Below are positions 13,720 through 49,794 of a stretch of DNA of 64,000 nt, piece after piece (the stretch's first letter is position 1; every line of letters starts with the position of its first letter). The stretch lies in the NCBI GenBank assembly GCA_904501985.1, contig CAJGCT010000003.1, positions 4,809-68,808 on the forward strand, written 5' to 3'. The translations under genes and the position numbers were made by a program. The notes under the pieces were generated by a model that was not told the DNA's origin, made no database searches, and saw only the letters and a program-made list of their open reading frames with translations. This stretch comes from an uncultured Clostridia bacterium (GTDB lineage Bacteria > Bacillota > Clostridia > Oscillospirales > CAG-272).

Positions 13720-14191
13720 GGTTTTGATCCTTTTTTGTATTACGGTGAATTATGCGGCTCATAAGAACGGCATCCTCCCGTGGCTTTGAGTAGAAACCCT
13801 TTCGGATTCCGTCAACAGAGAATCCGTGTTTTTCATAAAGTGCCCGTGCCGCTGTGTTTGAAACACGCACATCAAGCATAAGCTTTTCTAAAGACTCCGT
13901 TTCGCAGAGCTTATTTAGCAGTGCGGCGGCGGCACCTTGGCGTCTGAATTTTTGCAGAACGGCGATATTGGTGATCTCACCCTCGCCGAGTATCAGATTC
14001 ATTCCGGCGTATCCGCATATTTCGTTATCTATGAGCGCAACAAGGCAGTGTGAACAGCCATTTGAAAGGAAATCCTCAAAGCTTTTTGCGCTCCATGGAG
14101 TAGAGAAGCATTCATTCTCAATAGCGCATAGCTGGGGAATGTCCGACACGGAAGCCGACCTTACGGTAATTTCAGTCATAGTGTGTGTCAC
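13700..14191 (-). CDS. rimI: Ribosomal-protein-alanine N-acetyltransferase RimI (GNAT)
   Basis: GNAT motif A (FRRQGAAAALL) and the standard position directly upstream of tsaD. Confidence 0.8.
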   Translation of the reverse strand: MTHTMTEITVRSASVSDIPQLCAIENECFSTPWSAKSFEDFLSNGCSHCLVALIDNEICGYAGMNLILGEGEITNIAVLQKFRRQGAAAALLNKLCETESLEKLMLDVRVSNTAARALYEKHGFSVDGIRKGFYSKPREDAVLMSRIIHRNTKKDQNHADTCN

Positions 14192-14814: not shown

Positions 14815-14815
14815 C

Positions 14816-15304
14816 TTAATATCCGAACTTTCCGGAAAGGCTGTCGTCATCGTCGATCCAGCTTTTCACATCAATACAGTTGTATGTATCGGGAGTTGTA
14901 CGGATAATAACCTTTTCAATTCCCGCATTTATAACAAGACGCTTGCACATCATGCAGGAGCAGGTATCTCCCACAAGCTCGCCTGTTTTTCCGTCGATGC
15001 ACGCCATATAGAGCGTAGCCCCAAGCATCTGATCTCGGGAAGCGGCGATTATTGCGTTTGCCTCCGCATGAACGGAGCGGCACAGCTCATAACGCTCACC
15101 GCGCGGAATGTTCAGCTTGTCACGCATACAGAAACCGAGGTCGGTGCAGTTTTTTCTGGCTCTGGGGGCACCGTTATAGCCGGTGGAAACGATGGTATCG
15201 TTTTTTACGATGATCGCACCGTATTTTTTTCTGAGGCAGGTGGCGCGCTCTGCCACGGTCTGCGCGATATCAAGGTAGTAGTTTTCTTTTGAAACTCTTT
15301 CCAT
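14816..15304 (-). CDS. comEB: dCMP (deoxycytidylate) deaminase, ComEB-type
   Basis: Zinc site HAEANAI ... CSCMMCKRLV (PCxxC-like). Size is about 160 aa. Confidence 0.85.
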   Translation of the reverse strand: MERVSKENYYLDIAQTVAERATCLRKKYGAIIVKNDTIVSTGYNGAPRARKNCTDLGFCMRDKLNIPRGERYELCRSVHAEANAIIAASRDQMLGATLYMACIDGKTGELVGDTCSCMMCKRLVINAGIEKVIIRTTPDTYNCIDVKSWIDDDDSLSGKFGY

Positions 15305-15316
15305 AGTAATCTCCTT

Positions 15317-16192
15317 TTATTTAATGGAATCGGCAAATTCAATCAGGAATTTTTTGAAATCCTCGCCTATTTCAGGGTGATTAACGGCAGATTTGACATT
15401 TGCGGTAAGGAAACCAAGCTTGGAGCCAAAATCAAAGCGCTCGCCCTCAAAATCAACCGCGGTCATGCCTCCGTTCGTGGCAAGCACACGCATAGCATCT
15501 GTAAGCTGAATCTCGCCGCCTGCTCCCGGCTCTGTTTTTTCGAGTATATCGAATATATCGGAGGTAAGCAGAACTCTTCCGAGAATAGAAAGATTGGAGT
15601 AAGCCTGTTCCGGCTTGGGCTTTTCTATCATGTCTGTAACGTGATAGGTATTGTCGCCGTTAGATTCGGCTTTAAGAGAGCAGTATTTGTAAACAAGCTC
15701 CCACGGAACCGGCTTTACTCCGCAGCAAGGCTTGCCATATTTTTCATATGCCTTTGCAAGCTGTGTGCATACAGGAGTTTCGGAGAGAATAACATCGTCG
15801 CCGTAGAGTATGTAGAACGGTTCATCTGCTATGAAGTTCTTAGCGGTGAGTACCGCATGACCGAGACCCTTTGTCTCTTTCTGACGAAGAAAATACACGT
15901 TTGCCATGGAACAGATGCGGCGCATTTCCTCTATCTCGGCATACTTGCCCGATTCGGTAAGCTTTTTCTCATATTCAACGTTAAAGTCAAAGTAGTTTTC
16001 GATGGTATCCTTGCCTCTGCCTGTTATGATGAGAACATCTGTGACGCCTGCCGCGGCGGCTTCCTCAACGAGGAATGAAATTGCGGGACGGTCAACGATA
16101 GGAAGCATTTCCTTGGGAACAGACTTTGATATTGGCAGCATACGGGTGCCAAGACCCGCAGCAGGAATTACGGCTTTTGTTATCTTTTTCAT
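15317..16192 (-). CDS. galU: UTP--glucose-1-phosphate uridylyltransferase GalU
   Basis: MKKITKAVIPAAGLGTRMLPISKSVPKEMLPIVDRP is the canonical GalU N-terminus. Start moved to ATG 16192. Confidence 0.92.
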   Translation of the reverse strand: MKKITKAVIPAAGLGTRMLPISKSVPKEMLPIVDRPAISFLVEEAAAAGVTDVLIITGRGKDTIENYFDFNVEYEKKLTESGKYAEIEEMRRICSMANVYFLRQKETKGLGHAVLTAKNFIADEPFYILYGDDVILSETPVCTQLAKAYEKYGKPCCGVKPVPWELVYKYCSLKAESNGDNTYHVTDMIEKPKPEQAYSNLSILGRVLLTSDIFDILEKTEPGAGGEIQLTDAMRVLATNGGMTAVDFEGERFDFGSKLGFLTANVKSAVNHPEIGEDFKKFLIEFADSIK

Positions 16193-16378
16193 TTTCAAAA
16201 TCTCTCCTGTGAAATAAAGTGTATTCTCAGAGTGCTGATAAAAACAATTTATCACTATATATTATAGCGCGTTTTTGTTAATAAATCAAGTGTTTTGATA
16301 CACAAAAACGGGGTGTAATACAGGAAAACGCTCAATATGTGAAAAAAACGGATAAAAATCACATTTAGAAGAAAAAAG

Positions 16379-37551: not shown

Positions 37552-38238
37552 TTATCCTATTATTTTAGAGAGCTTCAAACCGGATTCGGTAATTTCATGA
37601 GGGTCAATAAAGTTTTGACGGTACACCTCTATAATATACTTCCCGGTGTATCCCGATTTTTCAAGTCGTGCTATTACACCGTCCACATCAAGCCTGCCCA
37701 TATATGGCAAGCGGCATTCGCCATCCAGCCAATCGTTAATGTGCACATGAACGATATCGTTTCCCATGGCGTCAAGCATTTTGTGAGGGTCATACCCTGC
37801 ACGGACAGTCTGCTTTAAGTCAAATACAAATTTGATATTACCCTCACCGAATCTGTCGTGTATCTCTTTCATAAAATCAGGGTTTCCTGCTTTGGCGGTA
37901 GACACATTTTCGTGAATGAGCGTTATACCTTGCTCCTTTGCGGCTTCCATAAGCATTGAAAGCACCTCACAGTAGTTGTCCATGCCGAAAAAGGGTGCTT
38001 TCAGGGAATCGCCGTGAAAAACGAAATAGTCCGCACCGAGATAGCTTGCCGCTTCGAAGTATTTTTTGTAAAAATAATCTATGGAGTCCCTGGCACGCTT
38101 TTTGTATGCCGAGAAAAAGTACATATATTCAAATCCTGATGTAAAGGGGTGGATTGACGTTATCTTAACCCCGTTTTCGTCGCACACATCGGCAATTTTT
38201 TTAAGATACGGTGTTTCAAGCTCCGAAAAGCTGTTCAT
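37552..38238 (-). CDS. Sugar phosphate isomerase/epimerase (xylose-isomerase-like TIM barrel); the true N-terminus probably lies upstream (to about 38345)
   Basis: TIM-barrel family features (FVFHGD, IHEN, VHINDW). The frame stays open upstream of ATG 38238 and encodes ...RIGVSSACFYPEETLDSIKKCISLGFRNIEIF, the usual first strand of the family, but no ATG/GTG/TTG is present there. Confidence 0.65.
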   Translation of the reverse strand: MNSFSELETPYLKKIADVCDENGVKITSIHPFTSGFEYMYFFSAYKKRARDSIDYFYKKYFEAASYLGADYFVFHGDSLKAPFFGMDNYCEVLSMLMEAAKEQGITLIHENVSTAKAGNPDFMKEIHDRFGEGNIKFVFDLKQTVRAGYDPHKMLDAMGNDIVHVHINDWLDGECRLPYMGRLDVDGVIARLEKSGYTGKYIIEVYRQNFIDPHEITESGLKLSKIIG

Positions 38239-38483
38239 GAATATCTCAATATTCCGAAAACCGAGGGAGATGCATTTTTTTATGGAGTCAAGCGTTTCCT
38301 CAGGATAGAAACAGGCACTTGATACTCCGATTCGTGAATTTTCCGTAACGATTCTCCTTAATGTTATTGTTTAGTTTTCACAATTGTGTGAGATTAAAGG
38401 CGGCGCTTCCATAATCCGATTGATGATTTTTTCTTTTATTTATGTTACAATAAATATAGAAAAAACTGAAAGGAAACGGAAAA

Positions 38484-38729
38484 GTGAAAAAACGAAGAAA
38501 CAAATCAAAACTTCGCCTTACGCCGACGGCACAGCGGCTTTTAATATGCTTGCTTGCCCCTATCGCGGCGACGGCACTGTATACGGCATTTTGCAGAGCA
38601 TCCCTTGATACATACGATGCTGCCAGACTCTATGGGATGCTTGGCTCCGAGATGGAGCACATACTTATGTCACTGCTGCTTGCGGTGGGTGGTGCGTTGG
38701 CACTTGATATTACGCTGAAGCGCGGTTAA
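38484..38729 (+). CDS. Hypothetical small membrane protein
   Basis: 81-aa ORF with a GTG start after GAAAGGAAACGG, a basic N-terminus and two hydrophobic helices. It is convergent with the helicase gene and overlaps its 3' end by 4 nt. Evidence is weak. Confidence 0.3.
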   Translation: MKKRRNKSKLRLTPTAQRLLICLLAPIAATALYTAFCRASLDTYDAARLYGMLGSEMEHILMSLLLAVGGALALDITLKRG

Positions 38730-40996
38730 TCTGTATATTCCGACAGTATCTGCGGAAGCCGCAACTTTATCTCATCCAAACGGAGCTTGTCTGCGGCGTA
38801 CTGACGCCGGAGCAGCTCTGCCGGAATGAAATCGTCGTATTTTTCAAATACGGGCATTTCGTTCGCGTTTACAAGCTTCGATTTGTCGATTCCCTCGCGG
38901 TCGATAATGTCGCAAAGTCCCTTTATAAGACCGTAGTCACTACCGGATTCCATTTTGAACATCATGAAATAGCAGCCCTCAAACTCAAGGTTTGTTATCT
39001 TGAAGCGTGCCGCATTCTGCATGATGAATTTGCGAAGCGTTCTGAAAGAGCGTGTGCCGAGCCATGGGAACAGACACCATGTATATCCCCCAAGGGGAAC
39101 AAGAGAATGAGAGAGCATTCCCGTGTTTCGGGCGAGGTTTCGCACGATTTCAAGGCGGTGTACGGCGTTTGGCTTAAGATACGGGTAGACGGTGTCCTCG
39201 AAGAGTATGCGGCGCATACGCTCAAGTATCTTTGTGTGTATCTCGCCAAAGTCCCCCGGCCAGGAGACCTCCATTTTGCCCTTTACCGCTTTTACATAAA
39301 TGAGCTTTCTCGGAATATCAAGCTCCTCAACCTCCCACACCCGGCCTGCAAGGGCAAATCTGTCACCCACAGGCGGCGGAGTTGTGATAGTTCCTATCTC
39401 ATCTGACTCGCACCTCACAGTATAATCCTCGCTGTCCTTGAAGACGGCATAGAATTTAAAGCTGTTTATAAGACGCTCGCCTTTAAGACCTACTATAAGC
39501 CCCTTTTCCTCGGTAAGCTCCAGAAAATCGTTTTGAAGCATACTCATAAGCAGTGTGCGGTAGTCGTCTTTGCTTATATTCTTGAAGGCAGGAAGCGAGA
39601 GAATGCGCTCTGCAAGTTTTTTGGGTGTAAGCTCACCGGAAGAAGCAAGAACCGACAGCGTCTGCTGAAACGCAAGGCTGAACGGCAGTTTTTTTGTGTA
39701 TGGAGGTTCGATGAATTTTTCTTCAATATATAGCTGAACTATGGCTATTGCCCGAAGAAAGCTCCACGGGATGAGCTGTGGTAGAGGCGCATTTGGCAGT
39801 GGATTCTCCTCACGGAATACCATCATCATTTCCGGCGGTGTGTCACGTCTGCCTGAGCGACCGAGACGTTGGAGAAAGCTTGAAACGGAGTTTGGAGCAT
39901 CATTTTGTATGATACGCTCAAGCTTACCGATATCAATGCCAAGCTCCATTGTTACCGTAGCGCAGGTAACGCATTTTTCCTCGCTGTTTTTCATCTTTGA
40001 TTCGGCTTCCTCTCGTATGGAAGCGGAAAGATTGCCGTGGTGTATGAGGAAATTGTCCCGTTCATGGCGGTTGTCGGCGATTTGACGCATGGTTGCCGTA
40101 ACATATTCCGTCTCCTCACGGGAGTTTGAGAAAATTATTGCTTTTTTGTTTTTTGCACAGTCGTAAATATACTCATATCCGGGGTCTATTTCAACTTTGC
40201 CGCGCGATGGCATTTCAGATACAGATGTGTCCGAATCCACCGACGGTGTATCGCGGCTTTGGTCGAGATTATCGCCCTGGATGAAGAAATGCTCCATGCC
40301 CAGCCGCCATTTTGTCTTGCCCTCAATTATTTCAGGTACGACAGTTTCCACATCCGTGCCGCCCCCAAGCCATTCTGCGGCAAGGGATGCATCACCCACG
40401 GTGGCGGAAAGTCCTATGCGGCGCGGCGTGTGTCCGATAAGTCTCGCCATACGCACTAACTGACATATTATCTGATTTCCACGGTCCGTGCCTGTCAGGG
40501 TGTGTATCTCGTCAATTACCACATACCGCAGATCGCCAAAAAGCCGCACTATATCATTTGAGCGGTTCATGAGCATACTTTCAAGGGATTCGGGTGTTAT
40601 CTGCAGGATTCCCTGCGGATTTTTTAGAAGCTTTGCCTTGTGTGACTGTGCCACATCGCCGTGCCAATGGAATACGGGGATTCCGGTCATATCGAGAAGC
40701 TCATCAAGGCGTGAAAATTGGTCGTTTATAAGGCTTTTGAGAGGTGCGATGTAAAGTGCACCGATACTGCTTGGCGGAGCTTCGTACATATCTGAAATTA
40801 TAGGGAAGAATGCCGCTTCTGTTTTACCTGAGGCGGTGGAGGACGTGATGAGCAGGTTTTTGTCCGTTTCAAACAGCACCCTGGCCGCCGCAAGCTGAAC
40901 TGCTCTCAGCTCCTGCCATCCGTTTCGGTATATGAAATCCTGAATGAACGGCGAAAATCGGTAGAAAATTTCGTTGTCTGTCATATCGGTCTCCAT
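38726..40996 (-). CDS. sngC: Lhr-like DEAD/DEAH-box SF2 helicase (Shango SngC-like; BrxHI-like)
   Basis: Motif I SSTASGKTEAAF, Ia YIAPLKSL, II VIDEIHTL, III GLSATV, VI QRLGRSGRR, plus a C-terminal extension of about 350 aa. It is the third gene of a tightly packed operon. Confidence 0.7.
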   Translation of the reverse strand: METDMTDNEIFYRFSPFIQDFIYRNGWQELRAVQLAAARVLFETDKNLLITSSTASGKTEAAFFPIISDMYEAPPSSIGALYIAPLKSLINDQFSRLDELLDMTGIPVFHWHGDVAQSHKAKLLKNPQGILQITPESLESMLMNRSNDIVRLFGDLRYVVIDEIHTLTGTDRGNQIICQLVRMARLIGHTPRRIGLSATVGDASLAAEWLGGGTDVETVVPEIIEGKTKWRLGMEHFFIQGDNLDQSRDTPSVDSDTSVSEMPSRGKVEIDPGYEYIYDCAKNKKAIIFSNSREETEYVTATMRQIADNRHERDNFLIHHGNLSASIREEAESKMKNSEEKCVTCATVTMELGIDIGKLERIIQNDAPNSVSSFLQRLGRSGRRDTPPEMMMVFREENPLPNAPLPQLIPWSFLRAIAIVQLYIEEKFIEPPYTKKLPFSLAFQQTLSVLASSGELTPKKLAERILSLPAFKNISKDDYRTLLMSMLQNDFLELTEEKGLIVGLKGERLINSFKFYAVFKDSEDYTVRCESDEIGTITTPPPVGDRFALAGRVWEVEELDIPRKLIYVKAVKGKMEVSWPGDFGEIHTKILERMRRILFEDTVYPYLKPNAVHRLEIVRNLARNTGMLSHSLVPLGGYTWCLFPWLGTRSFRTLRKFIMQNAARFKITNLEFEGCYFMMFKMESGSDYGLIKGLCDIIDREGIDKSKLVNANEMPVFEKYDDFIPAELLRRQYAADKLRLDEIKLRLPQILSEYTD

Positions 40997-40999
40997 GCC

Positions 41000-42367
41000 T
41001 TACAGTTCAATATCCGCCGCAGAGAAGTCCGTTATTATCTGCGGTCTGTCCTGTGTGTCGATAAGGTCGTTCTCGTCATCCTCGCCGTGGGACAGCGCAA
41101 TTGTGCCGCTTCCCACTACATCTAAAAAGGTTGTGTCGGGATTCTGAAGAAGAATGTTCAAAACCGTGATATAGTCTCTGATTATTTCGCGCGGGGTTAT
41201 CATAGTGTCAGCGCCTGCACGTTCAAGACATATCTTCAAAAATGTCAGCATATCCTCGTTTGTAACACGCGGCTCCCATGAATAGTTCTGGGCATGAAGT
41301 CCTGTTATACGCGCGACGAGAGCGTAAAGCTCATCATCCGAAAGCCTGCGCAGACGGATGACAGGACCGATAAGGTTTTTGAAGCCGTCCTTCTGAAACT
41401 GTCCGTCGGAGAGCCTGCTTCGAAGAGCCTCGTAGGAAAAGAGACCGCGTCTGGTGTCTTCAAGAAACTGCGGTGTGCCGCCGAAGATGAGAGCCAAGCC
41501 CTCGGCTTTGCCTTGAAGGGTATCATTAAACATGGACAACAGCTTTTCATAGTTATTCTCGCGTGAAATGCGGTTGGCTATCTTATAAAGATTTACGCAC
41601 TCATCAATGAAAACCACAAAGCCGCGGTAGCCTATCTTTCTGAAAAATACCGCAAGCAGTTTTATATACTCGTACCAATTATCGTCGTCGATTATTCCGC
41701 CAACGGAAATCCCCATGGCATTTCTTGCCTCGGTTTTGGTGGAATATTCGCCTCTGAGCCAACGGATGCAGGCGGATTTTTTATCCTCGTCTCCATCCAT
41801 ATATGCCTTATAATATGTGGTAAGAACCGTGGCAAAATCAAAGCCGCCGATCTGAGCTTCAAGCTCGCGGGTCTGTGAGTATATACGCGAGGTAAGCTCA
41901 CGCATAAAGGTGTCCGAGCCGATGGCGTGACCCTCGGCGGCGACTGAGGACTGAAGATCGGAGAGCCATTTGCCGATTATCTGCATGAGCGCACCGCCGT
42001 CAGGCGAGGATTTTGATGCCAGATTCCGTATAAGCTCGCGGTAGGTGGCAACTCCCGTTCCCTTAGCACCGCAGATTCGCCTCTCGGGAGAGAGGTCGGC
42101 ATCGGCGGTTATAAATCCGCGCTCCAGCGAAAATCCGCGAACAAGCTGAATAAGGAAGCTCTTTCCGCTTCCGTATTTTCCTATAACAAAGCGCATGGAT
42201 GCGCCGCCGTCGTTGACAGCTTCAAGGTCAGAAAGAAGTGCCTCTATCTCCTCGTTTCGTCCGATTGCAATGTACGGAGCACCCATACGCGGGACAACTC
42301 CTGCGGCGACTGAGGACAGAAGACCTGTGAGTATTCTTTTGGGTATCTTTCTTGCTATTTCAGCCAT
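41000..42367 (-). CDS. sngB: P-loop ATPase, DUF2791/BrxD-like (Shango SngB-like)
   Basis: Walker A IGKYGSGKSFL and Walker B GFVVFIDECV. Size is 455 aa. It overlaps the upstream gene by 13 nt and ends 3 nt before the helicase start. Confidence 0.65.
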   Translation of the reverse strand: MAEIARKIPKRILTGLLSSVAAGVVPRMGAPYIAIGRNEEIEALLSDLEAVNDGGASMRFVIGKYGSGKSFLIQLVRGFSLERGFITADADLSPERRICGAKGTGVATYRELIRNLASKSSPDGGALMQIIGKWLSDLQSSVAAEGHAIGSDTFMRELTSRIYSQTRELEAQIGGFDFATVLTTYYKAYMDGDEDKKSACIRWLRGEYSTKTEARNAMGISVGGIIDDDNWYEYIKLLAVFFRKIGYRGFVVFIDECVNLYKIANRISRENNYEKLLSMFNDTLQGKAEGLALIFGGTPQFLEDTRRGLFSYEALRSRLSDGQFQKDGFKNLIGPVIRLRRLSDDELYALVARITGLHAQNYSWEPRVTNEDMLTFLKICLERAGADTMITPREIIRDYITVLNILLQNPDTTFLDVVGSGTIALSHGEDDENDLIDTQDRPQIITDFSAADIEL

Positions 42368-44103
42368 TTTCTTATATCTCCTTCATAATCGGAAATAAGC
42401 CTGTACCCGTCGCCGTCAGATTCAATAACGCTGTCGCCTATAATATCAAAGGCGAGCTCGTTTATCTTGTCGGCGAGGGCATCCGGAAGTATGCCAAGCT
42501 GTGCAGACACATCGCTAAGAGCGTTGCTCTTGCCGTCACACAGTAAAGAGAGCACTTTTTTTGACGGCTCGTCAACAGCACCCATAAACGTCGCAAACTC
42601 ATCCTCGCCGTCCGCAGATGTGGGAGAGGTGTCGGGTGAATAAGAGAAATCATCATCAGCCGCACTTGGTATGGGCACGTTTTCGGTGATTTTTTCATCC
42701 TCGTCCGCTTCCTCAAAGGCTGCGGTGAGTATATCGGTGGTGTTCCACGATTTTTTCTCTATTTCAAGGGCGTTTTCGAGGGATAGCGATGTGGTGACAG
42801 GCTCGTAGAGCTTGTCATAGGCATTTTTAATGGAATCAGCCTCGGCGTTGTCGGAATTACGCTTCTTTTTCGGTACGGGCAGGTATTTGTCGAAGTATTC
42901 GTCAATGCAAGCCTTAAGCTTGTCTGTGAGCGATTCAACTTTCAGCCTGGATTTGATTCCAAGTGCCATTCGTATGCGATTTTCGCTGTATTTGATGATA
43001 TCGGTCACAGCAAATCTGAACTTCGGCGAGCGGGTATATGATATATATTCCACAGCGATTGAACGCTTCATATTGTATACGCACAGTGCGCCGTCGTATG
43101 CGGTGCGCTCCATACGGAATTCTTTTGCAAGAGTGTTGTCCTTTTCTGACAGTATTTCGCGGTACGCTTTCTCAAATGCGGCTTTTATATGCTTTGCAAA
43201 GAGAGCCACATTTTCAGCTGTAACATATCGGCTTTTGCGCCAATCGTATGTTGAAGAATATGAAAGAAGTCCTGCGGCAGTGCTTCCGTTTTCTTCGTCA
43301 ATGTAAAATTCCTTGAAATTCGCTGCCGCCACAACATCACCAAGGATAGGCTCAAGCTCTTTTGTGGGACAGGGAAGAGCATGGACAAGGCAGTAATCGC
43401 ACAGCCAATCGCACATATAGCTGTCAAGCCTGCGGTGCTCGGTGCGGTAATTAAGCCATATGGCGCAGAGCAGTGAAAGCCCGTCGGTGGGCGTTATAAG
43501 ATCGGGGGCGTTTATTATTTCATAAATATAGAGAAGTATATAGCAAAAATCGGTTTTCAGATATACGCCGCGGCGGACATTGTCACGCCACCAGAGATAC
43601 CATTTTAACTGCGCGTATTTAAGCTGTGAATACTGCGGAACATATGAAAAGAAAGAAACATGATCGCATGGGGTGGATGTGCGCGACCAAAGACGCTTTA
43701 CATCTGTACTGAAATTTTCGTAAAAGTTGAATCGCGAATTCCATGCCGACACTTCTACGCGTCGTATAAGTCCGCCTTTCGGCTCGTATATGAGATATGG
43801 GTCAAGAGGCTTCGAGCGGTATTCCTGCGCTCTTGTTTTCATGGAAAGCTCATTCAGCTTTCGTGCGGTATCGGCAGATGAGTGCTCACGGTGATATTCC
43901 GAGTCGTTTTTTGGAGGTATAGCCGAGCTTTTATCGGGGGTGATATCATCGGAGCCTACGGACAATTCCACTGTGTCGGTGTTTGAACGGCGAGCGGTTG
44001 GCACAACGGGACGTTTTTTCGGCAAAAGGGACTCAAGGTCCCAAAAATTGTCAATGTCACTTAGGTTTTTAGGCTTATCGCTCATACTCTCACCCCCGAT
44101 CAT
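42355..44103 (-). CDS. sngA: TerB_N / TerB_C domain protein (Shango SngA-like)
   Basis: TerB_N-like block FFSYVPQYSQLKYAQLKWYLWWRDNVRRGVYLKTDFCYILLYIYEIIN, an acidic linker, and a TerB_C-like tail LPDALADKINELAFDIIGDSVIESDGDGYRLISDYEGDIRKWLK. An alternative start at ATG 44085 has the better RBS (GGGGGTGA). Confidence 0.65.
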   Translation of the reverse strand: MIGGESMSDKPKNLSDIDNFWDLESLLPKKRPVVPTARRSNTDTVELSVGSDDITPDKSSAIPPKNDSEYHREHSSADTARKLNELSMKTRAQEYRSKPLDPYLIYEPKGGLIRRVEVSAWNSRFNFYENFSTDVKRLWSRTSTPCDHVSFFSYVPQYSQLKYAQLKWYLWWRDNVRRGVYLKTDFCYILLYIYEIINAPDLITPTDGLSLLCAIWLNYRTEHRRLDSYMCDWLCDYCLVHALPCPTKELEPILGDVVAAANFKEFYIDEENGSTAAGLLSYSSTYDWRKSRYVTAENVALFAKHIKAAFEKAYREILSEKDNTLAKEFRMERTAYDGALCVYNMKRSIAVEYISYTRSPKFRFAVTDIIKYSENRIRMALGIKSRLKVESLTDKLKACIDEYFDKYLPVPKKKRNSDNAEADSIKNAYDKLYEPVTTSLSLENALEIEKKSWNTTDILTAAFEEADEDEKITENVPIPSAADDDFSYSPDTSPTSADGEDEFATFMGAVDEPSKKVLSLLCDGKSNALSDVSAQLGILPDALADKINELAFDIIGDSVIESDGDGYRLISDYEGDIRKWLK

Positions 44104-44123
44104 AGCATTTTGGTTATTATATT

Positions 44124-44152
44124 ATTTTAACATATAATTGCCACAATGTCAA
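44124..44152 (-). promoter_or_regulatory. Putative sigma-A promoter of the TerB-ATPase-helicase operon
   Basis: The minus strand reads TTGACA (44152-44147), a 17-nt spacer, then TAAAAT (44129-44124). Confidence 0.55.
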
Positions 44153-44236: not shown

Positions 44237-44271
44237 AAAAAATCCGCATTCTTGCGAATGCGGATTTTTTT
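44237..44271. terminator. Bidirectional hairpin terminator separating the R-M cassette from the TerB operon
   Basis: ATCCGCATTC-TTGC-GAATGCGGAT 10-bp perfect stem flanked by an A-run and a T-run. Confidence 0.8.
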
Positions 44272-44275
44272 GTGT

Positions 44276-44327
44276 AAGGGCTATAAAAAAGATGTTTTTG
44301 CTAAAGTGCTTACGGGATTTGAACTTC
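44276..44327 (+). repeat. Left inverted-repeat block (IR-A 44276-44293, IR-B 44309-44327) bracketing the R-M cassette
   Basis: AAGGGCTATAAAAAAGAT and CTTACGGGATTTGAACTTC are the exact reverse complements of 47912-47929 and 47807-47825. Confidence 0.85.
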
Positions 44328-44343
44328 ACTATATTTACTTGAG

Positions 44344-45459
44344 TTAAGCAATTTCTTTTTGAAGTAGATTCTGATAATGCCTTTCAATAGCGATTATCAT
44401 TTCAATTCTTTTTTCGAGCTTTTCATAGTTTGTTACAATGTCATCCTGTTCCTTTTTCGACGGAATATCGATTTTGGTATGCTCAAAAAATCCTGTCATA
44501 TTCCAAGTACCATTGTCTGAACTGGATGAATATAGAAGAAATTCTGCTTTATATTGAATAGACAACCACTTTAAATTGATTTCATATGGTGAGTCATTTT
44601 TTACATATAAAATATATGCATCATCATTCAGTGTGTACCGACCTTTAGGTAAATATCTGACCGTTCCTGCCTTACCTTTTCTTGTAACCAACAACCCTTC
44701 TTTATCGTTAAATCGTGGTGCTTTAGTTGCGTCATCCAGCATTACAACGGAATTCTCTTTTGCGGTCGCTCCTGTAAGCAACAAATATCGTTCTCCGTCT
44801 GATTTTAAACGTTGATAGTTTTTTTCTTCCGTTAGATTGGATGTTCCGCTTATGTAGTCAATGCACTTTGTGATTTCAACATCTCGTCCTTGATATTCTT
44901 GATATTCCGCTATCAACTCTTTAGACAAAACTGAAAGATATTTTTCCTTAATAGATGTCAAAGCATCAAGTTTAATTTTGATATTCTGTATGGTTGACAT
45001 AATGTTGCATTGTACATCATACCTGGGTAAATCGAATTCCTCAGAATAAACTTGCTCCAGTGATAAAGTCTTAGAACCATCACTTACACTAAGATTTTTG
45101 TAGAAATTCTGAAAGAACAAAGCAAAGTATGGTAGACAAATTTTTTGGGTAGCATCTTTCTTTACTGTAATAAATCCAGCATGATGATTAAGCGCAAACC
45201 TTTCGCCAGTTTTGTAAGTCATACATCCTGCACTACCATCCAAGCTGATAATAATGCCTTCTCCAGAAAAAACGGTTATTGTTTCACCTTTTTTCGTTTT
45301 TGCTGATACAGATATTCTTCTTTCAGTTGAAGTATGGTCTTTATTTCCACCATAAAGAGGAACCAACTCATCTTTGTTTTGCAATGATCCATATATTGCT
45401 TCATCTGTAAGAGCATAATTGCCTTTTTGAATTTCATTAAACACATCAAGAAAGTTCAT
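44344..45459 (-). CDS. Restriction-modification specificity (S) subunit with two target-recognition domains (BcgI-B-like)
   Basis: 371 aa with two TRD-like halves (..VPLYGGN.. / ..LLLTGAT..), each followed by a coiled-coil conserved region (LDALTSIKEKYLSVLSKELI; EKLEKRIEMIIAIERHYQNLLQKEI). It overlaps the upstream methylase gene by 14 nt. Confidence 0.75.
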   Translation of the reverse strand: MNFLDVFNEIQKGNYALTDEAIYGSLQNKDELVPLYGGNKDHTSTERRISVSAKTKKGETITVFSGEGIIISLDGSAGCMTYKTGERFALNHHAGFITVKKDATQKICLPYFALFFQNFYKNLSVSDGSKTLSLEQVYSEEFDLPRYDVQCNIMSTIQNIKIKLDALTSIKEKYLSVLSKELIAEYQEYQGRDVEITKCIDYISGTSNLTEEKNYQRLKSDGERYLLLTGATAKENSVVMLDDATKAPRFNDKEGLLVTRKGKAGTVRYLPKGRYTLNDDAYILYVKNDSPYEINLKWLSIQYKAEFLLYSSSSDNGTWNMTGFFEHTKIDIPSKKEQDDIVTNYEKLEKRIEMIIAIERHYQNLLQKEIA

Positions 45460-47479
45460 CTAAAAACCTCCTAACTTCTGCATCCAATGATGAGATTTCT
45501 TTGTTAAAATCCGCTTCGCTGATATAATGAGGTGAGTAAGGACGCAAATAATATTCGGGAAGAAGCGTAATGTAATTGTCGCTCGTGATTTTGTCTATTG
45601 GGATATTTCCGCCCTTTCTTGCGATTTGTTCGAATCCTTTTTCGTCAATCCATTTTGTTGAAGATCCGCTGTCATCAAAAGTAAGCCAACGCTTTTCTAA
45701 TATTCCGGGCATTTCTACTCCGTCTGTGCTAACCCAACCGGAAATTTCATCGTGCATCCATCCATTTCGATTGTTTCTTAATTTCGTAGGGAAACGCTTG
45801 TCGGAATTTGCTAATCCGTCGTTATCGATGATGTACATCCATATAGGCTTAGTTTGCTTCTTTGTAACCTTGTTACTACGCTTTTTCAAAAACAATGCAT
45901 ATGTTTTTTCTTTTGTGTAAGGCGCAAATGCAAACTTGGGCAAAGAAACGATTGCGTAAATTTCACATTTTTCGAGAATTTCATTACGCAATTTTTTGTA
46001 AGAGGGATTTTCTAATACACCATCAGGTGTAATGATACAAGCCTTTCCACCAACCTTAAGCAAGTCAATAACCTTACAAATGAACGCAATTTCTGTTCTG
46101 TTTGTGGAAATCGCCTCCGTGTTTGCTTTTATCGTACCGCTACCATATGGGGGATTGGTGATTACGTATTGATAGGTTTTATCTAATACGCTTTTTCCTT
46201 GGCGAGTAGGTTTTAGAGTATTGTCCGAATACATGTGTGTATGCCCGTCGCCAACCAAAAACATATTTAAGCGAGTTCTTGAGATATTCTCATCCCTTAC
46301 ATCGATTCCGTAAAAACACTGTTTGGACAAAAATTCTCTTGCTTCATCCGTCAATGTGCCGCTTTTTTCATAATTGTTGTAGAGGACTTTGAAGCTCTCG
46401 GTCAAAAATCCACCAGTTCCACAAGCAGGGTCGATAATAGAAAACGTTTGCTCATCATTAAATGTTTCTTCGTCTTGAAGTAGCAACTTAGCAAAAATAT
46501 GAGTGTAATGTCTACGGGTAAAGTATTCACCAAAATCCTTTTTCTCTTTGGATGAAGCAAACATTTCATATACTGCACCAAACAAATCGAATCCCGTACC
46601 GTGTAAAGGCTTCATTGAATCAATAATGCTGTATATTTGTTTGACATCTTCAACACTTACCAAAGGCTTGTTTTTTCCATCACCGCTAATGGCAACACGA
46701 ACAACTTCCATTACATTTTTGAATTCTTTGAATGTTGTTTCATCTTCTAAACGACTAATATATCCACTTAGATTATTTTTTACTTTCTCGGCAATTTCAT
46801 CGTTACACGAAGACCAATAAACCTTGGAAGCATCCTTTGTTCCATCAATATCTTCTTTTTCCTCGAAATATTCAAGTGCTACAAATCCGACAGTGAAGTC
46901 TATCTTCTGAACATTATCCTTGAAATTGATACCGCGATACACACCTGCAAGTTCCCAAAGCTTTTTATTGAAGATTGCTTCAGAAATAGTAGAAATAGAA
47001 TCTACATTAGTGTTTATTGCATCAAGATCAGGGTTCGCAGTTAGCTTGTTCTTAATCAAGCGGTAGATATCAATAGTTTGAAACTCTCTTATTGGATTTC
47101 CATTCAAAGTCAATTGCTTTAAAGTTTTTGCGTTGTAGAAATAGGTAGTTTTGCAATTTGTAACTATAAAATATGGCAAACCCAATTTAGGAGCTTTAAT
47201 CTTTCCTTGTTTCAAAGCATCTTTCCAATCTTTATCATCAACCTTGCAATCATCTTTTGCTTCTGCATAAGCAACGAGATTCTTGATGTATTGATCGTCA
47301 TTTGTTCCGTCATATTCGAATTCTGAAATTAAAAGATCGGGACGCTTTGATCCTGTATACTTTGAAAAAGTGGTATCATTAACAATTTGGCGAAATGGTA
47401 TGCTTAACTGTGCTACAAGCACCTCGTTGATAAGACGGCTTACTGAAAGTGCCTCTTTTTTCTTTGTTCCTTTAGCCAT
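45446..47479 (-). CDS. Fused restriction endonuclease / N6-adenine DNA methyltransferase (type IIB BcgI-A-like or type IIG-like)
   Basis: The N-terminus has a PD-(D/E)xK-like motif (RPDLLISEF...AYAEAKDD). It is followed by gamma-class MTase motif I IIDPACGTGGFL and motif IV ITNPPYG. Start set at ATG 47479 (AGGAG RBS); the track ORF starts at 47521. Confidence 0.7.
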   Translation of the reverse strand: MAKGTKKKEALSVSRLINEVLVAQLSIPFRQIVNDTTFSKYTGSKRPDLLISEFEYDGTNDDQYIKNLVAYAEAKDDCKVDDKDWKDALKQGKIKAPKLGLPYFIVTNCKTTYFYNAKTLKQLTLNGNPIREFQTIDIYRLIKNKLTANPDLDAINTNVDSISTISEAIFNKKLWELAGVYRGINFKDNVQKIDFTVGFVALEYFEEKEDIDGTKDASKVYWSSCNDEIAEKVKNNLSGYISRLEDETTFKEFKNVMEVVRVAISGDGKNKPLVSVEDVKQIYSIIDSMKPLHGTGFDLFGAVYEMFASSKEKKDFGEYFTRRHYTHIFAKLLLQDEETFNDEQTFSIIDPACGTGGFLTESFKVLYNNYEKSGTLTDEAREFLSKQCFYGIDVRDENISRTRLNMFLVGDGHTHMYSDNTLKPTRQGKSVLDKTYQYVITNPPYGSGTIKANTEAISTNRTEIAFICKVIDLLKVGGKACIITPDGVLENPSYKKLRNEILEKCEIYAIVSLPKFAFAPYTKEKTYALFLKKRSNKVTKKQTKPIWMYIIDNDGLANSDKRFPTKLRNNRNGWMHDEISGWVSTDGVEMPGILEKRWLTFDDSGSSTKWIDEKGFEQIARKGGNIPIDKITSDNYITLLPEYYLRPYSPHYISEADFNKEISSLDAEVRRFLDELS

Positions 47480-47660
47480 TTTTCTTTTCTCCTTTTTCTT
47501 TATCCAAATGTTCACTGACATATCTTTCTGCTGCTTTGTTGAATAAGTCTGCCATACTTATATTATCATCAATCAACAATTTCCGTAGTTGATTGTGAAG
47601 CACGGTAGGCATACGAAATTGCACTTGTTTTGTTCTATCACTTTTGGTCGCCTGTTTCAA
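47472..47660 (-). CDS. Ribbon-helix-helix (CopG/Arc-like) small DNA-binding protein, first gene of the R-M operon
   Basis: 62 aa. VQFRMPTVLHNQLRKLLIDDNISMADLFNKAAERYV fits a beta-strand + helix A + helix B pattern. TTG start 47660 follows AGGAGG, and the stop overlaps the methylase start (ATGGCTAA). Confidence 0.55.
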   Translation of the reverse strand: MKQATKSDRTKQVQFRMPTVLHNQLRKLLIDDNISMADLFNKAAERYVSEHLDKEKGEKKNG

Positions 47661-47681
47661 AATGCCATCCTCCTGTCACAA

Positions 47682-47723
47682 ATGATATCATTCTATCACA
47701 ATACCTTGATATAAGGATATCAT
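47682..47723 (-). promoter_or_regulatory. Promoter/operator region of the R-M operon: extended -10 (TGATAGAAT) overlapped by the palindrome ATGATATCAT, with a second GATATCAT 25 nt upstream
   Basis: ATGATATCAT at 47682-47691, the -10 TAGAAT (minus strand) at 47690-47695, and GATATCAT at 47716-47723. Confidence 0.4.
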
Positions 47724-47806
47724 ATAAGGGAGATTTTGTCAACAATTTTCAACAAAAAAAGTGCATAGGTTTTTCCTATGCACAATAGAGTAGTATTCAA
47801 TTTCGG

Positions 47807-47929
47807 GAAGTTCAAATCCCGTAAGTGTTTAATATCTTTTTCTCGTGACTATGCGAGCCAAGGGCGGAAAAAACAAAAAAGCCTTGAAAAATCAAGGCTT
47901 TCCGCGGCTATATCTTTTTTATAGCCCTT
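47807..47929 (+). repeat. Right inverted-repeat block (IR-B' 47807-47825, IR-A' 47912-47929) between the R-M cassette and tRNA-Gln
   Basis: GAAGTTCAAATCCCGTAAG contains a tRNA T-arm-like CGGGAAGTTCAAATCCCG. ATCTTTTTTATAGCCCTT lies 3 nt from the tRNA-Gln 3' end. A hairpin GCCTTGA-AAAA-TCAAGGC (47881-47898) lies between the two repeats. Confidence 0.85.
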
Positions 47930-47932: not shown

Positions 47933-48006
47933 TGGCTGGGGATGAGGGGTTCGAACCCCCACAAACAGAGTCAGAGTCTGTCGTGCTACCGTTACACAAA
48001 TCCCCA
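47933..48006 (-). tRNA. tRNA-Gln (anticodon CTG)
   Basis: The minus strand reads TGGGGATTTGTGTAACGGTAGCACGACAGACTCTGACTCTGTTTGTGGGGGTTCGAACCCCTCATCCCCAGCCA. Acceptor TGGGGAT/ATCCCCA, anticodon loop CTCTGAC, T-arm GGGGG-TTCGAAC-CCCTC. Confidence 0.85.
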
Positions 48007-48214: not shown

Positions 48215-48352
48215 ATGAAACATATTACTACTTTAAATACCAAGAGCCTTTGCGACAGCGCAAAGAACGGCGGCTGCGGTGAGTGCCAGACCTCCTGCCA
48301 GTCCGCTTGCAAGACCAGCTGCGGTATCGCAAATCAGGCTTGCGAAAAGTAA
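48215..48352 (+). CDS. SCIFF ('six cysteines in forty-five residues') ranthipeptide precursor
   Basis: Below the ORF-track size cut-off. Hand translation gives MKHITTLNTKSLCDSAKNGGCGECQTSCQSACKTSCGIANQACEK (45 aa). AAGGAG RBS at 48201-48206. The cognate radical-SAM maturase is immediately downstream. Confidence 0.9.
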   Translation: MKHITTLNTKSLCDSAKNGGCGECQTSCQSACKTSCGIANQACEK

Positions 48353-48426: not shown

Positions 48427-49794
48427 ATGATACATTGTTATAAGCTCGGCGGACTTAATATTGTACTTGATATCTATTCCGGCTCGGTTCATGTGGTGGA
48501 CGAGGTGGCATATGACATCATTGAGGGCTATGAGAATACCGATAAGGCGGTATTGAAGGCTGAAACCGTGAAAAAACACAACATCACCGAGGCGGAATTT
48601 GATGAATGCTGTGCGCAGATAGAGGAGCTTCGCTCCGCAGGACAGCTTTTTGCCGAGGATACCTTTGAGCCTCTTGCAGGAAATCTTAAGGAAAAATCCA
48701 AGGGTGTGGTAAAGGCTTTATGCTTACATATTGCCCACAGCTGTAATCTTAACTGCTCGTATTGCTTTGCAAGTCAGGGTAAGTATCACGGTGAGCGTGC
48801 TGTTATGAGCTATGAGGTGGGAAAGCAGGCTCTTGATTTTCTTATTGCCAATTCCGGCACACGCCGTAATCTTGAAGTAGACTTTTTCGGCGGCGAGCCG
48901 CTTATGAATTTCGATGTTGTAAAGCAGCTCGTGGCATATGCCCGTTCCGTGGAAAAGGCGGCAGGCAAAAACTTCCGTTTCACCCTTACCACAAACGGTC
49001 TGCTTATTGACGACGATGTTATAGATTTTGCTAACCGCGAGTGCTCTAATGTGGTGCTGTCTCTTGACGGAAGAAAAGAGGTTCACGACCGTTTCCGTGT
49101 AGACTTGGCAGGTAACGGAAGCTGGGAGCGGATCGTTCCCAAATTCCAGAAGATGGTGGAGGCGCGCGGGGGCAAAAATTACTATATGCGCGGAACATTC
49201 ACCCATGCAAATCCCGATTTCCTTGAGGACATCAAAACTATGCTTGATCTTGGCTTCAATGAGCTGTCAATGGAACCGGTTGTTTGCCCCGAGGGCGACC
49301 CGTCCGCACTTACTGCCGAGGATCTTCCTATAGTGCTTGAGCAGTACGAAAAGCTTGCTGAACTTATGCTTGAGCGTCACCGCGCAGGCAAACCGTTCAC
49401 TTTCTACCATTACATGATAGATCTGAAGGGCGGTCCATGCATATACAAGCGTATTTCGGGATGCGGTTCGGGCACGGAATACATGGCGGTTACACCGTGG
49501 GGCGATTTGTACCCCTGCCATCAGTTTGTGGGCGAGGAGAAATTCAAGCTCGGCAACGTGTGGGACGGTGTTACAAATACCGAATGTCAGTGCGAATTTG
49601 CCGCCTGCAACGTTTATACAAGACCGGAATGCCGTGATTGCTGGGCGAAGCTTTACTGCTCGGGCGGATGTGCCGCCAACGCATATCATGCAACAGGCTC
49701 TGTTAACGGCATATACAAATACGGATGCGAGCTTTTCCGCAAGCGCATGGAATGCGCCATAATGCTGGAAGCCGCAAAGACCCTTGAAGAATAA
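48427..49794 (+). CDS. SCIFF radical SAM maturase (SPASM-domain thioether-forming enzyme)
   Basis: CxxxCxxC motif in AHSCNLNCSYCFA. The C-terminal Cys-rich SPASM region is CGSG...CHQF...CRDCWAKLYCSGGCAANA. It sits directly after the SCIFF peptide. Confidence 0.9.
   Translation: MIHCYKLGGLNIVLDIYSGSVHVVDEVAYDIIEGYENTDKAVLKAETVKKHNITEAEFDECCAQIEELRSAGQLFAEDTFEPLAGNLKEKSKGVVKALCLHIAHSCNLNCSYCFASQGKYHGERAVMSYEVGKQALDFLIANSGTRRNLEVDFFGGEPLMNFDVVKQLVAYARSVEKAAGKNFRFTLTTNGLLIDDDVIDFANRECSNVVLSLDGRKEVHDRFRVDLAGNGSWERIVPKFQKMVEARGGKNYYMRGTFTHANPDFLEDIKTMLDLGFNELSMEPVVCPEGDPSALTAEDLPIVLEQYEKLAELMLERHRAGKPFTFYHYMIDLKGGPCIYKRISGCGSGTEYMAVTPWGDLYPCHQFVGEEKFKLGNVWDGVTNTECQCEFAACNVYTRPECRDCWAKLYCSGGCAANAYHATGSVNGIYKYGCELFRKRMECAIMLEAAKTLEE

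Follow-up and report, generated by a model that had tools for sequence, protein, structure and literature searches.

This locus, three tightly packed genes on the minus strand of a stretch of 64,000 nucleotides (the window), raises the question whether they form an anti-phage operon of the Shango type and, if so, how their products might act together. Shango homologues were found to protect against phages in E. coli (Millman et al. 2022) and in P. aeruginosa PA14 cDHS1 (Johnson et al. 2023), and the literature consulted on the system gives no mechanism. The features of the locus are listed below with their positions in the window, and E-values are given in brackets.

38484..38729, plus strand: gene convergent with sngC (ends overlapping by 4 nt), coding for a small 81-aa protein that has two hydrophobic TM-like segments
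38726..40996, minus strand: sngC, 756-aa ORF, Lhr/BrxHI-like SF2 helicase (PADLOC SngC 9.5e-243)
41000..42367, minus strand: sngB, 455 aa, BrxC/BrxD-family AAA+ ATPase (PF10923 5.8e-156, PADLOC SngB 6.3e-170)
42355..44085, minus strand: sngA, 576 aa (TerB_N 3.5e-17 and TerB_C 2.4e-12 in Pfam, PADLOC SngA 2.4e-50)
44089..44097, minus strand: SngA RBS GGGGGTGAG, preceding the ATG at 44085, its GGAGG-type columns conserved across related loci
44124..44152, minus strand: putative sigma-A/sigma-70-type promoter, TTGACA-17 nt-TG-extended TAAAAT, score 11/12
44237..44270, strand unassigned: tRNA-Gln terminator, a perfect 15-bp hairpin with T-run, the upstream limit of the Shango promoter region

Identity of the operon and its proteins

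In PADLOC the top match of each gene was the corresponding Shango profile. For SngA it was the sole PADLOC match, and it came together with both TerB_N (63.3 bits, cut-off 25) and TerB_C (47.7 bits, cut-off 26.3); the canonical TerB domain PF05099 gave no Pfam match at E ≤ 0.01. SngB is a P-loop ATPase that scored 520 bits with PF10923 (BrxC_BrxD), and its SngB profile ranked far ahead of BrxD (1.8e-50); with the NCBIfam BrxD model (NF033438) it reached 169.6 bits and stayed below the cut-off of 350. SngC is an SF2 DEAD/DEAH helicase (Pfam DEAD 2e-27, Helicase_C 1.2e-17), in which the SngC profile spanned residues 8-744 and BrxHI trailed at 2.5e-125. The genes lie adjacent in the order A-B-C, an order shared by 40 metagenome loci and by plasmids of Paenibacillus, Klebsiella, Sphingobium and Phaeobacter (four regions inspected). 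The overlap of 13 nt between sngA and sngB, with the sngB RBS (GAAGGAG) inside sngA, and the following gap of 3 nt are signs of translational coupling.

The sequence-only reading had proposed a Shango-type triad of a TerB_N/TerB_C protein, a BrxD-type ATPase and an Lhr-like helicase, and every profile test that it suggested for the three proteins was positive. Its ORFs (42355-44103, 41000-42367 and 38726-40996, minus strand) were reproduced with their overlap and gap, and all the motifs that it quoted were found in the translations: the Trp/Tyr-rich block, acidic linker and C-terminal tail of SngA, Walker A GKYGSGKS and Walker B VVFIDE of SngB, and TASGKTEAAF, DEIH, SAT and QRLGRSGRR of SngC. 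Judged by profiles and gene order, the locus is clearly a member of Shango (SngABC), a kind already named, and its novelty is low. PADLOC detects such loci automatically, the family having been named and experimentally validated elsewhere.

At E ≤ 1e-10 no PADLOC profile for a nuclease, PglX, PglZ, BrxC or PglW matched any of the five locus genes or a further 39 long ORFs (≥150 aa) in the window, which agrees with the earlier claim that nuclease, PglX and PglZ are missing. Within the operon, Pfam and PADLOC profiles detected no toxin, nuclease, pore, NADase or other effector domain, and the Rfam families in the window were two tRNAs and nothing else.

Two of the gene starts were revised. The sngA ORF as first called (42355-44103, 582 aa) stood, but its start did not: the ATG at 44085 (M7) was shared by 47/47 homologues and lies behind the RBS, and in the relative L179 a 1-nt deletion throws the upstream ATG out of frame. 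Likewise the ORF of sngC was retained, and its start is probably the ATG at 40984 (M5), with a GGAG RBS upstream, which would give a protein of 752 aa.

SngA begins with the motif D-x-F-W-D-L-x-x-L-L-P-K-K-R, followed by a disordered region, TerB_N, a conserved alpha/beta middle domain, an acidic linker (net charge -9) and an acidic TerB_C (net charge -10). TerB_C may be wHTH-like, an assignment that comes from local Foldseek matches with non-significant E-values of 0.2-1; the AF2 model as a whole (pLDDT 80) gave no significant match to folds in the PDB, and no PDB relatives were found by sequence or profile. The N-terminal FW/basic motif was present in 71/89 homologues. In three proteobacterial plasmid copies SngA opens instead with a hydrophobic, TM-like segment, which the protein studied here lacks, and the conserved motif is likely a membrane-targeting alternative to that segment.

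The C-terminus of SngB is a disordered, acidic tail whose hydrophobic tip, DFSAADIEL, is kept in 53 of the 57 distinct homologues and has an analogue in the distant plasmid copies; the arrangement is reminiscent of the C-terminal tail of SSB. We know of no earlier description of either this tail and tip or the FW/basic linear motif of SngA. In the PDB no relatives of SngB were found by sequence or profile, the profile search returning the P-loop alone.

The RecA1/RecA2 core of SngC is followed by a C-terminal part of ~350 aa, which reads, on secondary structure and on comparison with BrxHI, as a winged helix, a beta-barrel and an alpha+beta C-terminal domain. Its nearest PDB folds were Lhr (5v9x, 5e-18) and MrfA, with Hel308 helicases also close, and its nearest PDB sequences were 6znp (9e-27) and 5v9x (1.2e-26). 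The Lhr core was the best structural match, as the description of the helicase as Lhr-like had implied. The Lhr equivalog models in NCBIfam were missed (TIGR04121, 206.5 vs 850; PRK13767, 199 vs 849), and Pfam WH_Lhr (PF19306) scored 19.2 against a gathering cut-off of 27. The resemblance of SngC to Lhr is at the level of the fold only.

The small gene convergent with sngC was found at the same position, with 32-48% identity, in 5/5 contexts first examined. It occurred in 16 related loci, directly beyond sngC in 14 and as a weak and more distant match in two, and same-position ORFs were also seen in L173 (78 aa) and L179 (81 aa; dN/dS 0.18). It was not detected in ~26 more distant triads, and its product had no match in Pfam or NCBIfam. 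This confinement to one sub-clade ruled it out as a fourth gene of Shango in general; it is closely linked to the operon and a candidate clade-specific accessory gene. As to fourth genes in other lineages, three loci have an AddB-like gene next to sngC, and elsewhere the genes downstream are DGOK, LacZ or BacA/FtsK, probably no more than neighbours.

Promoter region, neighbours and inheritance

A promoter scan returned 14 sites where 13.7 were expected, which is chance level. However, five related loci that have nothing else in common in their upstream flanks share an invariant -35 box, extended -10 box, spacing and RBS with the operon. The sngABC promoter is thus supported by phylogenetic footprinting, and the TTGACA-17-TAAAAT promoter claimed earlier at 44124-44152 draws its backing from this invariance, not from the scan. 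It looks near-consensus and constitutive.

The hairpin upstream (arms 44237-44251 and 44256-44270) had been read as an insulator between the operon and the restriction-modification (R-M) genes beyond it. As a perfect hairpin it was confirmed, but the role as a purpose-built insulator was ruled out. The R-M genes form a cassette of 3,655 bp with 36% GC and perfect terminal inverted repeats, and beyond it lies a tRNA-Gln gene (47933-48006). L179 is ~91% identical and lacks the cassette; there the same hairpin stands directly 3' of tRNA-Gln. We concluded that the hairpin is older than the cassette and is the native tRNA-Gln terminator, the R-M genes being a later insertion. Since Shango is intact in L179, the R-M genes and Shango are unrelated neighbours, and functional coupling between them was ruled out. 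The R-M methyltransferase scored 68.7 bits with the PglX model of BREX-1 (cut-off 500) and 14.9 with that of BREX-2 (cut-off 400). The terminal repeat of the cassette gave two single matches in viral contigs, by a rough estimate about chance level, and no convincing direct repeats that could serve as att sites were found flanking the island.

In Oscillospirales relatives the triad keeps housekeeping neighbours, either SCIFF/rSAM or AP_endonuc_2/NrdD. The NrdD/AP_endonuc_2 synteny holds over SngA identities of 47-92%, and a SCIFF-maturase-like rSAM/OKR_DC pair lies divergently upstream of SngA even at 33% SngA identity. At least 15 of ~24 NrdD homologues (≥83% identity, contigs ≥9 kb) lie on contigs equal in length to those of listed Shango proteins and, on this match of lengths, presumably share the contig with them. 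No Shango was found within 10 kb of the SCIFF maturase gene in 80 species-level genomes, a result that mainly reflects unconserved synteny on that side; NrdD and AP_endonuc_2 are the informative anchors.

SngA evolves about twice as fast as SngB and SngC. Across relatives the identities were 58/36/32% for SngA, 85/64/63% for SngB and 84/67/66% for SngC. The dN/dS ratios were 0.095, 0.044 and 0.041, respectively. Those of SngB and SngC match the neighbours NrdD and SCIFF maturase, with dS at the same level as in the flanking genes, a pattern atypical for high-turnover defence genes. From its rate, SngA would be the candidate specificity factor of Shango. The triad was missing in certain close relatives, L175 (NrdD 84% identical) and L176/L177 (82%), and is thus dispensable. 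Strict conservation at this locus in all relatives had been named beforehand as a sign against a defence role; the synteny and the housekeeping rates across the clade go part of the way towards such a pattern, yet some relatives lack the genes. SngA and SngB occurred without a nearby SngC in 15 related loci and SngA alone in one, so the full triad is not obligatory for the SngA family.

SngA relatives were found neither among 50,697 genomes of phages nor among 2.9 million viral contigs, and the search of plasmids with SngA matched four Bacillales megaplasmids only. Homologues of the ATPase were present on 696 plasmids, of which 542 are conjugative; the four plasmid regions inspected all carried the full triad, three with adjoining defence genes. 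Some relatives have defence-type neighbours, namely Fic with ResIII/Mrr (one related locus), Lit, and Fic with DUF4297. As to location in a defence island, the R-M cassette next door arrived later, most relatives have housekeeping flanks, and the proteobacterial copies are plasmid-borne, with defence genes beside them. Synteny and rates suggest that the operon has long resided in the chromosome here and been inherited vertically, and that it is probably not part of a mobile defence island. A survey of gut MAGs reported Shango in core genomes of Actinobacteriota.

Possible modes of action

We consider it probable that the locus is a Shango operon directed against phages or other mobile genetic elements, with its own constitutive promoter, in which an ATPase-loaded helicase under SngA interferes directly with the invader. 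Phage protection is expected here by analogy with the homologues in E. coli and P. aeruginosa; the loader-helicase action, the role of SngA, its membrane targeting and the direct interference are inferred, helicase loading by the ATPase under SngA control being the most likely arrangement. The literature places BrxD in the ORC/Cdc6 clade, and earlier work has suggested that BrxD and BrxHI, a dyad homologous to SngB and SngC, act as loader and helicase. SngB, as a BrxD-type AAA+ ATPase of that clade (a label taken from the BrxD literature and one NCBIfam match at E=0.004), would be the loader or activator of SngC. The latter would act as an Lhr/BrxHI-like SF2 DNA helicase with winged-helix, beta-barrel and C-terminal DNA-binding modules; a 3'-to-5' polarity is assumed, as in the related Lhr and Hel308. 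SngA would regulate or target the complex. Its aromatic/basic motif at the N-terminus, which stands where the three proteobacterial plasmid SngA proteins have their TM-like segment, probably places it at the membrane. Tethered short motifs may hold the complex together, in SngB the acidic tail with its hydrophobic tip and in SngA the acidic TerB_C. Upon infection SngC would be loaded on invading or replicating phage DNA, where it would unwind or strip replication and recombination intermediates, and replication would be blocked directly or the DNA exposed to host nucleases such as AddAB and SbcCD.

The conserved surroundings of the operon raise the alternative that the triad performs housekeeping genome maintenance, processing the cell's own DNA (stalled forks, R-loops, damage) as Lhr and MrfA do, with phage protection incidental or absent. 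The synteny with NrdD/AP_endonuc_2 and rSAM/OKR_DC, the presumed linkage to most NrdD homologues, the core-gene dN/dS of 0.04 in SngB and SngC with equal dS, the promoter of constitutive appearance, the DNA-repair helicases as nearest structural relatives of SngC and the core-genome Shango of Actinobacteriota are all consistent with it. So are two arrangements in relatives: in L155, L162 and L167 the stop of sngC and the start of an AddB-like helicase-nuclease gene overlap, and in L175 SbcCD fills the interval between NrdD and AP_endonuc_2. Still, we regard maintenance as unlikely, as homologous triads are experimentally anti-phage, the genes are missing from L175, L176/L177 and the surroundings of SCIFF maturase in all 80 genomes, the ATPase homologues travel on plasmids, with the triad in all four regions inspected and defence genes in three, and SngA has changed much more quickly than SngB and SngC. 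A further view would treat the Oscillospirales Shango as a core-like, vertically inherited chromosomal machine built through tethered motifs. Its primary task would be to survey or process DNA at the membrane, be it incoming DNA or replication intermediates of the cell itself, and defence against phages would be one output. Here the FW/basic motif of SngA would replace the TM-like segment and possibly dock on the two-TM protein. We hold this to be quite unlikely.

Very unlikely in our judgement is abortive infection, in which SngA would sense infection, for instance through a phage protein or a perturbed membrane, and free SngB and SngC to act on nucleic acids of the host or to use up ATP, so that the cell is arrested or killed. 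Helicase/ATPase systems without an effector can turn toxic when deregulated, the operon carries no methylase to mark self from non-self, and TerB-family proteins have been proposed in the literature as membrane-surveillance sensors. Against this, none of the effector domains sought was found, and the apparently constitutive expression together with strong purifying selection suggests low toxicity. The operon might also be a remnant or satellite of type 2 BREX (the BrxD-BrxHI dyad), or a partner of the adjacent R-M methyltransferase, seeing that BrxD and BrxHI were the second-best PADLOC matches and that the methyltransferase is weakly PglX-like. But SngB and SngC scored far above BrxD and BrxHI, and the score with the PglX model falls far short of its cut-off. 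The BREX-2 remnant was ruled out, with its core genes absent from the ORFs scanned and the BrxD model under its cut-off, and the partnership is refuted by the empty site in L179. In either form this explanation is barely credible.

Comparison with known systems

The Shango operon described here adds no new kind of system, but the comparative data give concrete handles on Shango, namely SngA as candidate specificity factor and two conserved terminal motifs usable for assembly tests. No solved structure was detected for SngA or SngB by sequence, nor for SngA by fold.

As in type 2 BREX, where BrxD and BrxHI are paired, a PF10923 ATPase is tightly linked here to an Lhr-like helicase, the two pairs being homologous, and the domain order of SngC agrees with that reported for BrxHI: winged helix, beta-barrel and C-terminal domain. 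Unlike BREX, the locus has no BrxC, PglX, PglZ or PglW and misses the BrxD cut-off, and a TerB_N/TerB_C protein replaces the BREX core. With Lhr-core and MrfA (YprA), the top solved structures, SngC shares an SF2 DExH core followed by C-terminal domains, whereas it misses their equivalog cut-offs widely and is encoded with SngA and SngB and not beside a ligase or an exonuclease. The label TerB and a suggested role in membrane-associated sensing link SngA to Bunzi BnzA, Dionysus DinB and the TerB of tellurite resistance. They differ from it in that SngA matched TerB_N and TerB_C but not the TerB domain, and is partnered by an ATPase and a helicase and not by pore-forming or membrane effectors.

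Within Shango itself, the operon resembles those of E. coli and PA14 in its best profiles, in the order TerB_N/TerB_C protein-ATPase-helicase, in its co-directional tight packing and in having no nuclease. The plasmid-borne systems of Klebsiella, Sphingobium and Phaeobacter have SngA proteins of 769-1035 aa with a TM-like N-terminus, whereas SngA here has 576 aa without it, and in the sub-clade studied here a small two-TM gene abuts sngC, unlike in described Shango. In contrast to the described copies in hotspots or on plasmids, the present one appears to be a long-resident chromosomal copy among housekeeping genes. Shango in gut Clostridia appears to behave as a stable chromosomal gene set, which matters when counts of defence systems are taken as markers of mobile "accessory" immunity.

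Family assignment of the triad

The sequence-only reading took the three minus-strand genes for a Shango-type (SngABC) module of unexplained mechanism, and profile searches with Pfam and PADLOC bore out this identification. In Pfam the first product (SngA) matched TerB_N (3.5e-17) and TerB_C (2.4e-12), with no match to the TerB domain proper (PF05099), and the second (SngB) matched BrxC_BrxD (5.8e-156). Of the Lhr-like helicase proposed for the third (SngC), DEAD and Helicase_C were recognised and WH_Lhr stayed under the cut-off. The best PADLOC matches were SngA (2.4e-50), SngB (6.3e-170) and SngC (9.5e-243); the second-best, BrxD for SngB (1.8e-50) and BrxHI for SngC (2.5e-125), were clearly behind. 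NCBIfam gave no name to any of the three proteins, and its BrxD model scored 169.6 bits, well under the cut-off of 350. No match to PglX, PglZ, BrxC or PglW was detected at E<=1e-10 among the five locus genes and the 39 other window ORFs of at least 150 aa. An identity as BREX was thus ruled out, and from the PADLOC ranking together with the lack of BREX core genes we concluded that the triad is almost certainly a Shango-family operon. The profile scans also agreed with the earlier statement that the operon holds no nuclease, methylase, PglX/PglZ or toxin of its own.

Millman et al. gave Shango its name as a defence system, and independent validation came from P. aeruginosa PA14. The present copy is an ordinary find for a PADLOC-type scan. 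No mechanism is given in the literature that we found, and a September 2025 preprint states that how TerB-domain proteins protect is unclear.

Translational coupling in the sngABC operon and its conserved promoter

The three ORFs (42355-44103, 41000-42367 and 38726-40996), their spacing with a 13-nt overlap and then a 3-nt gap, and all peptide motifs quoted for them were found again in the sequence and its translations. The start of sngA had to be moved from 44103 to Met7: all 47 aligned homologues start at this residue, its ATG is preceded by GGGGGTGAG, and in L179, a relative with approx. 91% DNA identity to the window, the upstream ATG is not in frame owing to the loss of one nucleotide. 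The probable start of sngC is ATG 40984, which is favoured by a GGAG located six bases before it and by the consensus MxDxxIFYRF of the homologues.

Features of the sng operon and its surroundings (window positions)
37552-38238, minus strand: AP_endonuc_2, longest canonical ORF, 228 aa
38484-38729, plus strand: small ORF, 81 aa, two hydrophobic, TM-like segments, unannotated
38726-40996, minus strand: sngC
41000-42367, minus strand: sngB
42355-44085, minus strand: sngA with the start at Met7, 576 aa
44152..44124, minus strand: promoter TTGACA-17-TAAAAT
44237-44270: perfect 15-bp hairpin
44273-47927: R-M cassette, 3,655 bp, with genes at 44344-45459, 45446-47521 and 47472-47660
48215-48352: SCIFF six-cysteine ranthipeptide precursor (TIGR03973, 79.8 bits, cut-off 50)
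48427-49794: SCIFF radical-SAM maturase (TIGR03974, 757.8 bits, cut-off 425)

The proposed promoter stood as a site, matching the consensus at 11 of 12 positions with a TG extension, but not by its scan score, as 14 such sites were counted and 13.7 were expected in shuffled sequence. It is credible because five related loci, whose upstream flanks are unrelated to one another, share without any change both the -35 and the extended -10 box (TGTTAAAAT), their spacing and an RBS of GGAGG type. The promoter looks constitutive.

The hairpin, which had been read as insulating the operon from the upstream R-M genes, is present but is the terminator of tRNA-Gln. In L179 the order is SCIFF maturase gene, tRNA-Gln, terminator, sngA, sngB, sngC, the 81-aa ORF and AP_endonuc_2, without R-M genes; at the NrdD position there is a contig-end ORF with no Pfam call. 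By comparison with L179 the cassette was inserted between the 3' A-run of tRNA-Gln and its terminator. Since L179 has the terminator and Shango without the cassette, the R-M system is an unrelated, recent neighbour, and the hairpin is the older of the two. The GC content is approx. 36% in the 44-48-kb stretch around the cassette vs approx. 48% in the flanks. The cassette is bounded by perfect 18-bp terminal inverted repeats (AAGGGCTATAAAAAAGAT; 0.01 expected by chance); it has subterminal inverted repeats as well, and A6-7 runs flank it on both sides. Inside are an RHH-like ORF, a PD..EAK nuclease fused to an N6-methyltransferase (691 aa) and an S subunit encoded separately, much as in BcgI or type IIG enzymes; neither a transposase nor an integrase was found within it. 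The cassette has the look of a mobile R-M element that is non-autonomous and has terminal inverted repeats as its borders.

Inheritance, evolutionary rates and variant loci

The window is part of a contig from a metagenome; at species level its nearest relatives are Candidatus Flemingiibacterium and further MAGs of the Oscillospirales. In genomes whose SngA is 47-92% identical to that of the window, the order NrdD, AP_endonuc_2, small ORF, sngC, sngB, sngA recurs, some loci showing local rearrangements, insertions or truncated contigs. Divergently upstream of sngA, a pair of SCIFF-maturase-like rSAM and OKR_DC genes recurs even at 33% SngA identity. The SCIFF precursor and maturase are housekeeping genes of Clostridia; they lie just past tRNA-Gln in the window and adjoin Shango directly in the cassette-free L179. 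When the lengths of the contigs in the NrdD, SngA and SngC hit lists were matched, at least 15 of approx. 24 NrdD homologues (at least 83% identity, contigs of at least 9 kb) apparently shared a contig with Shango, and inspection of three unmatched cases gave Shango in L173, other content in L175 and a different context in L176/L177. Judged from these contigs, conservation of the triad in the clade is wide but not strict.

In L175, which lacks Shango, SbcD and SbcC (12426-16318) lie between NrdD and AP_endonuc_2, the position of the triad and the small ORF in other relatives. The small ORF is convergent with sngC, with an overlap of 4 nt at the sngC stop codon, and is conserved, with the motif EH..MSL.L.VGGA..FD, in this sub-clade only; no family was matched in Pfam or NCBIfam. 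The AP_endonuc_2 gene has ATC at 38350-38352 where the L179 orthologue (266 aa) has its ATG start, which leaves the longest canonical ORF at only 228 aa; either a rare start codon or an N-terminal truncation would account for this.

dN/dS of window genes against L179 (dS 0.30-0.46 for every gene)
sngA: 0.095
sngB: 0.044
sngC: 0.041
small ORF: 0.18 (purifying selection)
SCIFF maturase: 0.025
pseudouridine synthase: 0.092
OKR_DC: 0.153

This pattern of dN/dS and dS indicates that the Shango genes diverged together with the chromosome under strong purifying selection. Across 40 loci in three divergence bins, the mean identities of SngA/SngB/SngC were 58/85/84%, 36/64/67% and 32/63/66%. SngA thus diverges about twice as fast as its partners, and fastest in two disordered linkers.

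No SngA relative was detected in 50,697 phage records or 2.9 million viral contigs. In Proteobacteria, ATPase homologues were found on 696 plasmids (542 conjugative); the triad was complete in all four plasmid regions inspected, and in three it had Lit, Fic or DUF4297 genes next to it. Independently, a gut-MAG survey notes that core genomes of Actinobacteriota contain Shango. Relatives tolerate genes inserted between sngB and sngC: a YbaK/ProX-type aminoacyl-tRNA-editing domain protein of 156 aa in L086 (13132-13602) and a GNAT acetyltransferase with oppositely oriented PadR and DUF2812 genes in L090 (13191-14627). Fifteen loci had sngA and sngB without sngC in their remaining 2.8-8.7 kb (L099, L101, L104, L111, L112, L115, L117, L118, L125, L145, L147, L150, L156, L159 and L164); the next genes in L101, L104 and L150 were housekeeping, e.g. 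BacA with FtsK, LacZ or GH20. In L084 a sngA-like gene stood entirely alone; therefore the SngA family exists outside the canonical triad too. In three distant loci an AddB-like gene (ADDB_N and a PD-(D/E)XK nuclease domain, approx. 1,080 aa) begins 4-8 nt before the sngC stop (L155:6224-9472, L162:6605-9853, L167:7030-10272), which suggests that this lineage transcribes Shango together with the recombination nuclease AddAB.

Subunit features and possible mode of action

For SngA and SngB no solved relative was detectable by sequence or profile. The AF2 model of SngA (mean pLDDT 80; disordered segments 34-74, 415-427 and 466-492) had no significant match to PDB folds. It gave local matches of approx. 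75 columns (E 0.2-1) to winged-helix domains of LysR, MarR, Csa3 and FtsK-gamma types, which probably fall on the C-terminal helix-helix-helix-hairpin unit (residues 500-582), though we take this only as a lead. Because this unit is strongly acidic (net charge -10, preceding linker -9), direct DNA binding by it is unlikely. The N-terminal motif D-x-F-W-D-[IL]-x-x-L-L-P-x-K-[KR] occurred in 71 of 89 homologues. SngA of Klebsiella, Sphingobium and Phaeobacter has a hydrophobic, TM-like segment in its place, from which we infer that the aromatic/basic motif may be another means of membrane or partner attachment. The disordered, acidic, Pro/Gly/Ser-rich tail of SngB ends in [FY]-x-P-x-D-I-[ED]-[FLI]-COOH in 53 of 57 distinct tails (DFSAADIEL in the window), and distant plasmid copies have analogous ends, e.g. 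...DDGLANFKL, ...DELASFRL and ...FLAEFEL. The C-terminal tip of SSB is DFDDDIPF, which we take, as a lead, to be what the SngB end resembles.

In a 2026 comparative study BrxD is placed in the ORC/Cdc6 clade of AAA+ ATPases, and BrxD may, according to that study, load or activate the helicase BrxHI. SngB might likewise load or activate SngC on invading or replicating DNA, with a membrane-positioned SngA controlling or targeting the pair, and SngC would then interfere directly with phage replication intermediates or pass them to host nucleases. We regard this loader-helicase model as tentative, with the chances somewhat against it. How the P. aeruginosa homologue behaves in liquid culture speaks for direct interference rather than abortive infection.

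As the main rival we see a role of the triad in genome maintenance in this lineage. Core-like synteny, evolutionary rates at housekeeping level and the kinship to repair helicases support such a role; it is weakened because some relatives lack the triad and because defence has been validated for homologues. We consider that the triad probably serves defence in this organism. Core-like inheritance, the rate asymmetry between subunits, the tethered terminal motifs and a SngA without TM segment are useful, testable leads.

Among known systems, the closest solved fold to the SngC model (mean pLDDT 69) is the Lhr core (5v9x, 5e-18), followed by MrfA, Hjm/Hel308 and Brr2, yet NCBIfam Lhr-type equivalogs scored only approx. 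200 bits against cut-offs of approx. 850. SngC is homologous to BrxHI of BREX, which the 2026 study describes as an SF2 core followed by a wHTH, a HAS-type barrel and an Lhr-CTD-like domain.
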